Notes under the pieces: generated by a model
Databases searched by the model: none
Seen by the model: only the letters and a program-made list of their open reading frames with translations
What the model was told of the DNA's origin: nothing
Part shown: positions 1 to 3,311 of the stretch, in pieces
Layout: each line of letters starts with the position of its first letter
Position numbering within the stretch: position 1 is the first letter of the stretch
Source of the DNA: a virus
DNA: 64,000 nt
Virus record (IMG/VR): IMGVR_UViG_3300031669_000012
Span: 3,008 to 67,007 of that record
Direction: 5' to 3' (one strand)
Position numbers and translations under genes: made by a program

Positions 1-128
1 CCATATTTTGTTTCAGCAAATTCACTATTTTTGTGAATTTGAAATCTTACTTTTCCAAAATAGAGAACTTTTGTAGGAGGTAATACTTCTTCTTCTGGTA
101 ATTCACTTAATGTTTTACAAAGTCCCAT
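1..128 (-). CDS. Partial hypothetical protein (runs off left edge)
   Basis: Read manually: ATG at 128 after an A-rich upstream sequence, MGLCKTLSELPEEEVLPPTKVLYFGKVRFQIHKNSEFAETKY..., no stop before the window edge. Not in the ORF track. Confidence 0.55.
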   Translation of the reverse strand, partial: MGLCKTLSELPEEEVLPPTKVLYFGKVRFQIHKNSEFAETKY

Positions 129-221
129 AATTGTAAATTTGAGTTTGAGCTTTATTACTATTTCAAGTAATATACTAGCACTCCTATTCTTCATTTTATA
201 GTCAGAACTTTTATGACTTAT

Positions 222-254
222 AAAAACCACAAGATGTGCAGATACATCTCGTGG
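222..254 (-). terminator. Rho-independent terminator
   Basis: Minus strand CCACGAGATGT-ATCTGC-ACATCTTGTGG (11-bp stem, one G-U) followed by TTTTT. Confidence 0.8.
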
Positions 255-277
255 TGTAAATTTAATCCAATAAACTT

Positions 278-398
278 TTAGTAGTTTCGCCCCCTGTATA
301 GATAGTTTATACTCTATCAGATGTTTCAAGGTCAACCTTGATTCTTCTATCTTTTCAGATTTACTCTCAAATGTGAGGAAGGGAGCCACCTCTACTAA
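278..398 (-). ncRNA. Candidate multi-branched structured RNA of unknown family
   Basis: Closing helices UUAGUAG/CUACUAA and GCUCCCU/G-run enclose four hairpins: CUCA-CAUU-UGAG, AUCU-GAAA-AGAU, UCAAGG-UUGA-CCUUGA and GAUAG-AGUAUAAA-CUAUC. A terminator lies just downstream. Confidence 0.55.
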
Positions 399-400
399 TA

Positions 401-724
401 TCAAAAATACTTATTGTAGACTTCAATTAGCACTTCATATTGTGCTCTAGCCGTAATCAAAGTAATTTCTAAATCAAAAATAGAAACAATTTGATTTTTA
501 GCGAAGTCTCTCGATGGATTAACAAAAGGAGTTTTATCCATAGCATTTATTGCTGCAGAACGAAGTTCAATAGTTTCTTCATGTCTAGCAATCATGTGTT
601 CAACTCTTGAAATTCTATCCAATAGATCTTTTTTAGAAATATCAAATAAAACTTCTTGAGCAGCAGGAGTATTTGCATAATTAGCAATTATCTTACTGAT
701 TCTGGGTTTCTTTTGATAAGCCAT
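401..724 (-). CDS. Hypothetical protein (helical); start probably at 724 (MAYQKK), ORF track start 766
   Basis: ORF in a tightly packed minus-strand run; no recognisable motif. Confidence 0.65.
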   Translation of the reverse strand: MAYQKKPRISKIIANYANTPAAQEVLFDISKKDLLDRISRVEHMIARHEETIELRSAAINAMDKTPFVNPSRDFAKNQIVSIFDLEITLITARAQYEVLIEVYNKYF

Positions 725-1214
725 GTGAATTATTATTAGTAAACAAATGTTCAATATAATTCTCATTTATTTCCATAGCCCTATCTTTAAAAATAAAGCG
801 CATGAACGTATTTGCGATTTGTGCAAGTGTAACAGTTTTAAACCGAATTGTATTACAAATAATCGCACCACAATCTCTTTCATAGATTACTTTGAATCCA
901 TGATATTTTGTAGCATCTTTTATTGGCACAAGTAATCTAACTTGAATACCAATTTCATCCTCTTGACAAACTCCATCTACATAATATTTGCCAACATGAA
1001 TATGCTTTGTAGAAGAAACTTTACGAAGAATGCCTTTGAAACTAACTTCGTGTTTAGGTAGATGTTTAACTCTAACACCTAAAATGTTACGATAATCTTC
1101 TGTATCGTTATAACACCTGACGAAGTTTTCTTTGCACAATTCACGAGTTCTATCTTTACTCAAAGTAATGTTACATTGAGGACATTTACCAAATGGTCCA
1201 TCAGGGTTTCTCAT
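693..1214 (-). CDS. Hypothetical protein with N-terminal CxxC
   Basis: 173-aa ORF starting 11 nt after the thyX stop; KCPQC motif plus further Cys residues. Confidence 0.7.
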   Translation of the reverse strand: MRNPDGPFGKCPQCNITLSKDRTRELCKENFVRCYNDTEDYRNILGVRVKHLPKHEVSFKGILRKVSSTKHIHVGKYYVDGVCQEDEIGIQVRLLVPIKDATKYHGFKVIYERDCGAIICNTIRFKTVTLAQIANTFMRFIFKDRAMEINENYIEHLFTNNNSHGLSKETQNQ

Positions 1215-1225
1215 ACGATTAGGAT

Positions 1226-2008
1226 TTAAAGATCATCAAACAAAATAGGTATTAAACTTTGAAATCTCTCTTTAAGAGGATTCATTAAATCTATCATTTG
1301 AGGATGTGCAGCAGCACCACAACGAAGTTTAAATATGTGTCTCCATTCTCTAATATTAGCAGAAATATTTATTTCTGTTTTAAGAGAATTAGGAAGAACT
1401 GAACGTGCTTGTTGAGGCGACCAACCTAAACTTATTAACGTTTGATATGTTGTTTCTGATCCAGCAAGTGAATGTAAAAACCAATCAGATGCATGTTTAT
1501 TATCATGTTTTACAATTTTATCTAATTTGTCATTAACCCAATCATTTTCCCACCAAATATAAGTATCTTCTGATAGATACAACCAACTAGGAATAATGAA
1601 AGTAATATGCTTTTCATTTCCATAATTACAATATCTAGTTGATTCTTGTGCAAAACTAGCAATACGATGTCTTACTAATTCATGACTAACACCTCTATCC
1701 GTAATAAACTTAACAGTGATATTTCCACCAAATTCAAGCATTGCTTCATGCTTTCTAGAAATTAGTTTAGGAATTAATTTACGAGCAGATATAGAATATT
1801 GAAAATTAATATCACTCATATTTATTTCAACAAGTTGTGTAGAAACATGATTAACTATTTCACTTTTTTCGGATAAAGGAAGTAATTTAGAATATTCAAT
1901 TCTGCCTTCACTCTTATAACAAGTTCTAGCAGCTAACTCAATTTGTTTAAGAATCTCTTCTCCATTAATAGGAGTAATAATCTCAAAAGATTGTTTGATC
2001 AGTTTCAT
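1226..2008 (-). CDS. thyX: Flavin-dependent thymidylate synthase
   Basis: Signature ELVRHRIASFAQESTRY (RHRx7SxR), plus AARTCYKS, HEAMLEF, ARSVLPNS and NIREWRHIFKLR...AHPQM. Confidence 0.95.
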   Translation of the reverse strand: MKLIKQSFEIITPINGEEILKQIELAARTCYKSEGRIEYSKLLPLSEKSEIVNHVSTQLVEINMSDINFQYSISARKLIPKLISRKHEAMLEFGGNITVKFITDRGVSHELVRHRIASFAQESTRYCNYGNEKHITFIIPSWLYLSEDTYIWWENDWVNDKLDKIVKHDNKHASDWFLHSLAGSETTYQTLISLGWSPQQARSVLPNSLKTEINISANIREWRHIFKLRCGAAAHPQMIDLMNPLKERFQSLIPILFDDL

Positions 2009-2874: not shown

Positions 2875-3311
2875 AACTTAAACCTTTTAAATATGTTCCA
2901 AGGTCTTCTCTCAATCGTAATAAGAGCAATAAGATAGTTTTCACGTGCAAGACGATCTAACATAATTAGATTCAAATCAACTGAATTCTTACCAATCAAT
3001 TGTAGACCAATCCTATCTCGAACATTTTCAACAGGAAATTCCATCCTAGTAATGTCGATAACATTTAATTTAACTTTAAAAGCAGTTCTTGGAAGATTAA
3101 ATGTTAGCATCACATCAGCATCAAACATCCTAATATTGAGAAATATTGCTCTAAGAATGTTCTCAAGTAACGTGTTAGGAAAATGACTGAATCTAACATG
3201 CAATCTTATAGAAGCTTCTTCAACAGTCTTTATAACAAATATAACAGAAGCATCTGAAATAGTTTCAAGTGTAAGTTTCATCGCTAATCTAAATTTAAGC
3301 ACTATTAACAA
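2868..3311 (-). CDS. Hypothetical protein (start possibly 3281)
   Basis: ORF of 137-147 aa downstream of a terminator; no motif recognised. Confidence 0.65.
   Translation of the reverse strand: MLIVLKFRLAMKLTLETISDASVIFVIKTVEEASIRLHVRFSHFPNTLLENILRAIFLNIRMFDADVMLTFNLPRTAFKVKLNVIDITRMEFPVENVRDRIGLQLIGKNSVDLNLIMLDRLARENYLIALITIERRPWNIFKRFKLW

Follow-up and report, generated by a model that had tools for sequence, protein, structure and literature searches.

The 64,000-nucleotide (nt) stretch of viral DNA analysed here (the window; positions 3,008 to 67,007 of IMG/VR virus record IMGVR_UViG_3300031669_000012) carries on its minus strand, at 398-278, a 121-nt element that, we are confident, genuinely belongs to a new family of structured RNAs. 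Its members are nearly confined to uncultivated phages, where they often lie next to or within genes for tRNA or transfer-messenger RNA (tmRNA). Our preferred interpretation, to which we assign a probability of roughly 0.4, is that the element may be a stable module binding a factor or ligand. An undescribed phage non-coding RNA had been proposed on this strand from the letters of the window (the original prediction); the proposal is supported by the folding energy, the Rfam searches and covariation, the three points checked on which it could have failed.

Read 5' to 3', the element runs UUAGUAG-AGGUG-GCUCCCU...AGGGGGC-GAAA-CUACUAA. The minimum free energy (MFE) calculated with RNAfold is -34.8 kcal/mol, compared with -23.2 ± 3.2 kcal/mol for 200 dinucleotide shuffles (z = -3.64), none of which folded as well. 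The two long helices of the original prediction, the closing helix P0 (398-392/284-278) and the helix formed by GCUCCCU (S2; 386-380/295-289), are present in the fold at these coordinates. The four proposed hairpins are present as well (377-366, 360-349, 340-327 and 318-301), but not all of them belong to the core, two being lineage-specific insertions. What had been drawn as an AGGUG/GAAA internal loop is in fact one strand of a pseudoknot, as covariation pairs A391-G387 with C323-U319; the drawing also lacked a second pseudoknot, of only 2 bp, between A343/A342 and U334/U335. The preference for the minus strand was well founded: our covariance model (R1) matches this strand only, and the conserved G.U and U.G pairs become A-C mismatches on the opposite strand. 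The description of the element as GC-rich for its genome holds only marginally (35-36% versus 29% G+C).

A blastn search with window positions 150-800 against GenBank phages returned a single record, the 462-kb uncultured phage LR756500.1. The alignment spans window positions 283-394 only, that is, the RNA without its flanking genes. The two phages agree at every base of a 38-nt block and of the 5' UAGAGGUGGCUCCCUU, two hairpins carry compensatory changes, and the hairpin with the GAAA tetraloop is deleted in LR756500.1. The pattern GGTGGCTCCC N55-85 ACAGGGGGCG found 23 IMG/VR loci, 22 of which have the whole architecture; with either side freed, the patterns matched 47 loci and then, twice, at least 120. 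From the matches listed we gathered 103 distinct sequences, and the family counts given below (100, 102 or 103 members) rest on the at least 120 pattern matches listed. The covariance model, built from 21 members, recognises the window element with 92.8 bits (E = 2e-22) as the sole match in the 85-kb genome; five huge-phage genomes likewise hold exactly one copy apiece, and 100 loci (870 kb in total) gave one match each. Members occur in phages of 23-65% G+C, and the core is unchanged between phages of 23% and 63% G+C. In sludge run X3, contigs other than that of the window carry window positions 290-394 in unrelated flanks. Contig depth in X3 is 41-49 within the element against 16, with loose ends at 282 and 394; since the excess is confined to the element, other genomes in the sample carry the same module in different flanks.

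Cellular genomes are nearly devoid of the family. The first pattern gave 31 GC-rich matches in 185,579 cellular genomes, compared with a chance estimate of ~30, and none had the family core. Only five true matches were found in these 185,579 species, four on contigs of metagenome-assembled genomes (MAGs) of Patescibacteria/candidate phyla radiation (L196, L203, L204 and L206) and one in a Planctomycetota MAG (L205); they may be mis-binned phages or prophages. The contigs are 22-50 kb long, except for L205 (1.5 Mb), and the copies in L204 and L206 adjoin tRNA or tmRNA genes. When five members or tmRNA units were compared by blastn with 50,697 GenBank phages, only LR756500 and matches to the T arm of tRNA-Ala were returned, and an exact 27-mer scan found no match.

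As anticipated, no known Rfam family matches the element. Scanning window positions 1-1500 with the 4227 models of Rfam 15 at E ≤ 10 gave chance-level matches only, the best being SpF11 with 26 of the 54 bits needed, over the terminator; at the gathering threshold the whole window gave nothing. Members likewise had no match at E ≤ 1 or the gathering threshold, and the only models above threshold in 33 member loci were tRNA and tmRNA, none of them centred on the element. Rfam 15, the GenBank phage annotations reachable by blastn and full text searched by words and by sequence strings yielded no description of the motif; it may be among the unnamed candidates of a large screen (10,006 csRNAs; PMC10690425).

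The consensus of the core is NGGUG-GCUCCCU-(junction YAA..NN-U)-Pb hairpin-R-CAUCN'-(variable arm)-UAUAC-AGGGGGC-GAA-(tail). In an alignment of 100 sequences (A4), 91.6% of the cells form standard pairs, versus 76% in column shuffles; sliding the partners by 1-3 columns as a control reduces pairing to 32-51%. Nineteen pairs vary on both sides, and compensatory changes are seen in every variable helix and in both pseudoknots, providing the covariation that the original prediction had asked for. The first pseudoknot, S1, is formed across GCUCCCU/AGGGGGC by NGGUG and CAUCN', the latter a strand situated between the third and fourth hairpins. It is paired in 100% of the cells; its free pair N:N' is GC in 35 of the 100 sequences, GU in 30, AU in 26, CG in 3 and UA in 1, and the rare GGAG variants are accompanied by CUUC. 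In S2, the outer three pairs covary (G-C is replaced by A-U 13 times) and a U.G wobble is retained in 95 of 100 sequences and reversed to G.U in three, while of 73 true members collected with the eight bases of the inner CCCU/AGGG left free in the search, 72 keep them unchanged. Two conserved wobble pairs flank the S1/S2 junction. The mini-pseudoknot joins two junction bases, located 2 nt 5' of Pb, to the first two bases of the Pb tetraloop; its pairs are AU43/CG36/GC20/UA1 and GC84/GU5/AU3, at positions never fixed by any search pattern. The covariation of N:N', the outer S2 pairs, Pb and P0 is likewise independent of the search patterns. A local fold resembling pseudoknot 1 (PK1) of Aquifex tmRNA (GGG/CCC) was considered and rejected, because covariation favours S1 and S2.

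The 3' tail beyond GAA pairs in two ways. In type I, to which the window element belongs, it pairs with the 5' flank, and in type II with the strand just after CAUCN', giving a 74-nt, tRNA-sized RNA with two 7-bp helices. A rough script assigned 26-39 members to each type and left the remainder ambiguous. The Pc hairpin is variable or absent in other members (for example L024), type II substituting the pairing with the 3' tail, and the core of the smallest member measures 56 nt. A hairpin similar to the GAAA hairpin of the window was spotted by eye in L023, among the listed members. In five Bacteroidota-type phages (L007:1790-1990, L008:4660-4900(-), L014:4740-4950, L024:8325-8500 and L025) the element sits inside a larger RNA of ~190 nt, whose covarying outer helix GAACAAACUCAAG/CUUGAGUCACUGUUC also takes in ~50 nt of 3' extension with possible pairing to the junction; just upstream of these RNAs is an odd 'tRNA' of 115-125 nt with a ~45-nt insertion in the anticodon loop.

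The genomic contexts of the family are diverse. Twenty-nine of 102 members follow a ribonucleotide reductase (RNR) gene in T4-like phages (25 class I NrdA, 4 class II), and most of these precede gp25/gp6 baseplate genes. The 24 class I loci examined share one layout: stop codon, 2-11 nt, element, 10-20 nt, strong terminator. At the four class II loci a short open reading frame (ORF) lies in between and the RNR stop codon is 160-239 nt upstream. Overall, the distance from stop codon to GGUG is 2-15 nt in 29 of 32 members checked, and 33 of 102 have a strong terminator within 90 nt, after a short spacer. In two GC-rich loci (L006:182-706(-) and L020:942-1452(-)) the upstream ORF extends into the element and terminates at the UGA within CAUCUGA; its C-terminal motif (...CANCH...) resembles HNH endonucleases, with no Pfam match at E ≤ 0.01. 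Locus L074 has an HNH gene (Pfam HNH_3) 3' of the element.

A phage tmRNA is associated with ~22 of 102 members. In eight of them (L015:753-1218, L149:798-1263(-), L123, L154, L105, L005, L019 and L021) the element stands in for pseudoknot 2 (PK2) directly after the tag frame of a one-piece tmRNA (for example ...AAKAEYAVAA*); ARAGORN misses four of these loci. In the other 14, the element forms a 5' leader, 28-30 nt ahead of the tmRNA 5' end. One of these copies, in L120, lies right behind a canonical Bacteroidetes promoter, TTTG-N19-TACCTTTG, and so forms the 5' end of the primary transcript. Element and tmRNA make up a single transcription unit in L120:400-920(-) and 13 similar loci. A further setting is the tRNA array (13 of 102 members, same strand, within 300 nt), where type II copies resemble an additional tRNA, being separated from the adjacent tRNAs by 1-15 nt. 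Four huge phages represented by whole genomes (G001-G004) all have a tmRNA elsewhere, and three of them encode SmpB.

The members in the PK2 slot invite comparison with tmRNA pseudoknots (RF00023). Both are H-type pseudoknots, and in the eight tmRNAs the element takes exactly the PK2 place; the family differs in occurring mostly outside tmRNA and in having a conserved core sequence, unlike ordinary tmRNA pseudoknots. Sixteen of 20 bases of Aquifex aeolicus tmRNA PK1 (GGGGUGGCUCCCCUAACAGCCG, PDB 2G1W) match the 5' end of the family (for example L099, GGGUGGCUCCCUUAAUAGUU), but the pairing register differs and the resemblance is probably a coincidence. Among small stable phage RNAs, the closest parallel to the type II array members is T4 rnaC/rnaD (species 1 and 2 RNAs), which are annotated among tRNA genes. 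The two are not homologous: a cmsearch of T4 positions 68000-76000 with R1 and filters off gave a best score of 9.1 bits (E = 0.5), not at rnaC/rnaD. These T4 RNAs are co-transcribed and processed with tRNAs; we know of no established function for them. There is also a precedent for an aptamer on phage tmRNA, as a glutamine riboswitch (glnA RNA, RF01739) has been reported inside a marine phage tmRNA gene (Melnitz, PMC9004378). The riboswitch and the present family are both small, pseudoknotted modules that occur in T4-like aquatic phages and in a tmRNA gene; they differ in that neither RF01739 nor RF01704 matched in any scan of the window or the members.

We propose that the RNA would be made either as the structured 3' end of a small-ORF transcript or as a small RNA of ~175 nt from a possible -7 box at 409-402. 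It would then persist as an autonomous, stable module whose invariant pseudoknot core binds a partner common to very different hosts. Candidates for this partner are a component of the translation or RNA-processing machinery and a small ligand; the element would neither act by antisense pairing nor code for protein. We favour an autonomous binding module because the double-pseudoknot core is sequence-specific, there is one copy per genome, and the placement would in every context yield a discrete stable RNA: as a 3' untranslated region (UTR) before a terminator, in a slot of a tRNA array, as a leader proximal to the transcription start site (TSS), or in the PK2 domain of tmRNA. A partner in translation or RNA processing is suggested because the family keeps company with tRNA, tmRNA and SmpB-encoding phages. 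The conservation pattern is equally compatible with a small ligand.

Several observations weigh against this proposal. No protein neighbour is common to all contexts. The phage of the window has neither tRNA nor tmRNA (ARAGORN and Rfam) nor SmpB, in the window and in the 85-kb genome, so that the link to translation is an association drawn from other phages alone. The runs that carry the window copy are represented by contigs, which give no RNA ends; two of these runs are labelled 'RNA-Seq' but are probably DNA, and no RNA data set is listed as carrying the window. The search patterns fixed parts of S1 and S2, which makes their invariance partly a product of construction, a concern relieved by the searches in which one side was freed. 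Finally, two traits of the family, the rewiring between types I and II and the tight 5' boundary, are more usual in self-cleaving ribozymes.

Few structured RNA families are so conserved, with ~30 invariant bases and two covariation-supported pseudoknots, and still lack an assigned function. This one has more than 100 distinct members in phages of unrelated hosts and recurrent links to tRNA arrays, tmRNA and RNR transcripts. Binding to the translation or RNA-processing machinery would imply that phages commonly deal with host translation or ribosome rescue in a manner so far unrecognised, and the tmRNA-embedded forms would be natural tmRNA chimeras. With a consensus, a covariance model and minimal forms of both types (56-75 nt), the family is defined well enough for direct testing.

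It is possible, if somewhat doubtful, that the family instead represents a new catalytic or ligand-binding class: either a ribozyme with an HDV-like (hepatitis delta virus) double pseudoknot and a different active-site layout, or a free-standing aptamer, sensor or RNA 'sponge'. The latter could respond to a metabolite or signal common to all hosts, and phages would express this RNA together with tRNA/tmRNA genes or graft it into them. Either would add a new class.

The catalytic version taken by itself, a new class of self-cleaving ribozyme with the double pseudoknot as its active site, appears unlikely to us. The most natural cut would be at the 5' edge of NGGUG, as in HDV; it would separate the downstream RNA from an ORF or tRNA lying ahead of it and nick the tmRNA where the element is embedded. 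The nested double pseudoknot has the same strand order as in HDV-like ribozymes including theta, namely P1 (S1, which here crosses S2)-P2 (S2)-P3 (Pb)-P1'-P4 (Pc, variable or absent)-J4/2 junction with an invariant C-P2'. Both have a dispensable P4-like arm, a 2-bp mini-helix involving a P3-like loop, and the invariant C before P2', and the conserved G.U wobbles also fit. The two connectivity types recall the permutations of hammerhead and twister ribozymes, and, as with other phage ribozymes, the core does not differ between hosts and is seldom found in cells. Theta ribozymes are phage-borne and often lie right behind a tRNA gene; those of gut phages are within 5 nt of tRNAs and have no P4 (Kienbeck et al. 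2024, PMC10879173). The 5' edge of our element is similarly placed, 1-2 nt past tRNA 3' ends in L118 and L160 and 2-11 nt past stop codons.

The details of the fold speak against this analogy. None of the HDV, hammerhead, twister, pistol and hatchet models matches at E ≤ 10, and the family has no match to the HDV families of Rfam. HDV-like ribozymes start P1 with a fixed G.U pair with G at +1, but the first S1 pair of the family can be A-U, G-C or G.U, and in type I the preceding base is paired in P0. Pb, with 5-6 bp and a tetraloop, differs from the 3-bp hairpin and 7-nt loop of HDV-like ribozymes; its mini-helix partner is J2/3, not J1/4 as in P1.1, and the bases after CAUCN' are, by eye, not complementary to the loop. 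The catalytic C of HDV is the first base of J4/2 (PMC10879173), whereas the junction of the family reads UAUAC(A), with the invariant C at its 3' end. The family also has an extra closing helix and ~30 invariant bases, compared with very few in HDV-like ribozymes. With regard to context, a 5'-edge cut in the TSS-proximal tmRNA leader would remove only ~10 nt, and there is a single copy per genome even though the arrays hold dozens of tRNAs.

A cis-acting sensor, that is, a riboswitch-like aptamer or attenuator that gates read-through at the terminator 22 nt downstream and modulates tmRNA where embedded, is in our estimate distinctly unlikely. As in an aptamer, the junctions and pseudoknots are invariant, the peripheral arms vary and the closing helix covaries; a third of the members (33 of 102) have the nearby terminator noted above, some type II closing helices themselves precede a U run (L013 and L065), and the tmRNA-borne glutamine riboswitch (PMC9004378) sets a precedent. 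However, the terminators of the window and of the other terminator-bearing members, when folded, are self-contained hairpins of 9-13 bp, separated from the element by a spacer and sharing no strand with it. In the window, ACAUCU (the 3' strand of S1) is complementary to AGAUGU in the 5' arm of the terminator, but a match of 6 nt is within chance. Furthermore, the element lies 3' of ORFs and not in 5' leaders, and an expression platform would not fit into the tight slots between tRNAs.

The element might, alternatively, be a passive structure, such as a descendant of a tmRNA pseudoknot that serves as a folding or nuclease-blocking cap and has no specific partner. The replacement of PK2 in eight tmRNAs by an H-type pseudoknot, the similarity of the 5' 20 nt to Aquifex PK1 (GGGGUGGCUCCCCUAACAGCCG) and a 3'-UTR location next to terminators, which would suit a stabilising role, all point in this direction. 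We nonetheless consider it very unlikely: a roadblock needs neither ~30 invariant bases nor two wobbles nor an invariant CCCU/AGGG across phages of 23-65% G+C, the Aquifex likeness is in a different pairing register, and a 5' leader removed by RNase P cannot protect the tmRNA.

It is extremely improbable that the element is coding, through a -1 slip on U UUU UGA (407-401) that fuses the upstream 121-aa ORF to a 274-codon frame with the pseudoknot as stimulator: a T run precedes the stop (TTTTTGA), a pseudoknot follows it, and the -1 frame is open from 404 through element and terminator into a downstream gene of 180 aa, past the window start (minus strand; L001:870-1691:-), as in 0 of 5000 dinucleotide shuffles of 404-129 and in 0.9% with the element held fixed, but the heptamer departs from the canonical X XXY YYZ, a 12-bp terminator and U tract would lie inside the coding region, family indels are not multiples of three and the changes in the family compensate each other at the RNA level, no frame through the element is consistently open in other members, and with a start at ATG 194 just 27 extra codons would have to be open by chance, a small excess. 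The extension is covered by no database protein, the sole one beginning at ATG 128; when the 274-aa frame was used as a protein query, the identical 180-aa call was its single match, and a second contig carrying the 180-aa gene is 100% identical and adds nothing. Frameshifting or read-through as a family-wide feature was discarded for the same lack of a consistent open frame. Mimicry of rRNA, RNase P or tmRNA by sequence was also rejected, there being no similarity in E. coli genomes. Mimicry of the tRNA-Ala/tmRNA acceptor (S2 GGGGC/GCUCC, G3.U70) is doubtful, as only 5 bp are in common and a few members reverse the wobble.

Table 1. The RNA element and its surroundings in the window.
Feature	Position	Strand	Remarks
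P0 5' strand UUAGUAG, closing helix	392..398	-	pairs with 284-278; 7/7 P0 pairs vary on both sides across the family
P0 3' strand CUACUAA	278..284	-	fold and covariation
Pseudoknot S1 5' strand AGGUG	387..391	-	pairs with 323-319; first pair is A-U in the window
Pseudoknot S1 3' strand CAUCU	319..323	-	covariation; CAUC conserved though not fixed by the first search pattern
S2 5' strand GCUCCCU	380..386	-	pairs with 295-289
S2 3' strand AGGGGGC	289..295	-	covariation
Pa hairpin CUCA-CAUU-UGAG, optional insertion	366..377	-	in MFE fold; missing from most members, covaries where found
Extra hairpin with GAAA tetraloop, lineage-specific	349..360	-	MFE fold; deleted in LR756500
Junction AA of the 2-bp mini-pseudoknot	342..343	-	A343:U334, A342:U335 (Pb loop)
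Pb hairpin CAAGG-UUGA-CCUUG, conserved core	327..340	-	97% paired; 4/5 pairs covary
Pc hairpin GAUAG-AGUAUAAA-CUAUC, length varies across the family	301..318	-	MFE fold; identical in LR756500
Conserved single-stranded UAUAC ahead of S2 3' strand	296..300	-	AUAC invariant in alignments A3 and A4
Conserved GAA(A) linker, S2 to P0	285..288	-	GAA invariant
Intrinsic terminator	221..255	-	12-bp stem (255-226), 5 G-C pairs, 6-nt loop, TTTTTAT tail
Upstream 121-aa ORF	401..766	-	TGA stop 403-401, 2 nt before P0
TATTTTTG, possible Bacteroidetes-type -7 promoter box (TAnnTTTG), weak	402..409	-	geometry as TTTG-N19-TACCTTTG before L120-type element-tmRNA unit

The window copy lies downstream of thyX and two small ORFs (Table 1) and has the same layout of stop codon, element, spacer and terminator as the RNR-linked members. 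In this phage it would form a 3'-UTR or small-RNA unit of its own. The strong terminator had been correctly predicted, at a distance of 23 nt; the spacer from the last pair of the element measures 22 nt. The promoter call at 409-402 is weak, as TAnnTTTG is not enriched upstream of ORFs in the window genome. For the 121-aa ORF we found no relatives in a search of related loci, no PHROGs match, and weak, sub-threshold Pfam matches only. The sequence 3' of the element has a UAUUGGA in common between the window (277-256) and LR756500.1 (L003:3098-3260); in LR756500 it opens a 10-bp long-range helix, AACUAUUGGA/UCCAAUAGUU, around a further structured stretch of ~90 nt.

The phage itself has no RNR and no gp25. 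The earlier guess that it belongs to the Crassvirales agrees with its gene content: the TerL, portal and major-head (MCP) PHROGs identify it as crAss-like, as do its giant ORFs. These encode 2084 and 5065 aa and lie 3' of the structural genes, at window positions 40999-62543 on the plus strand.

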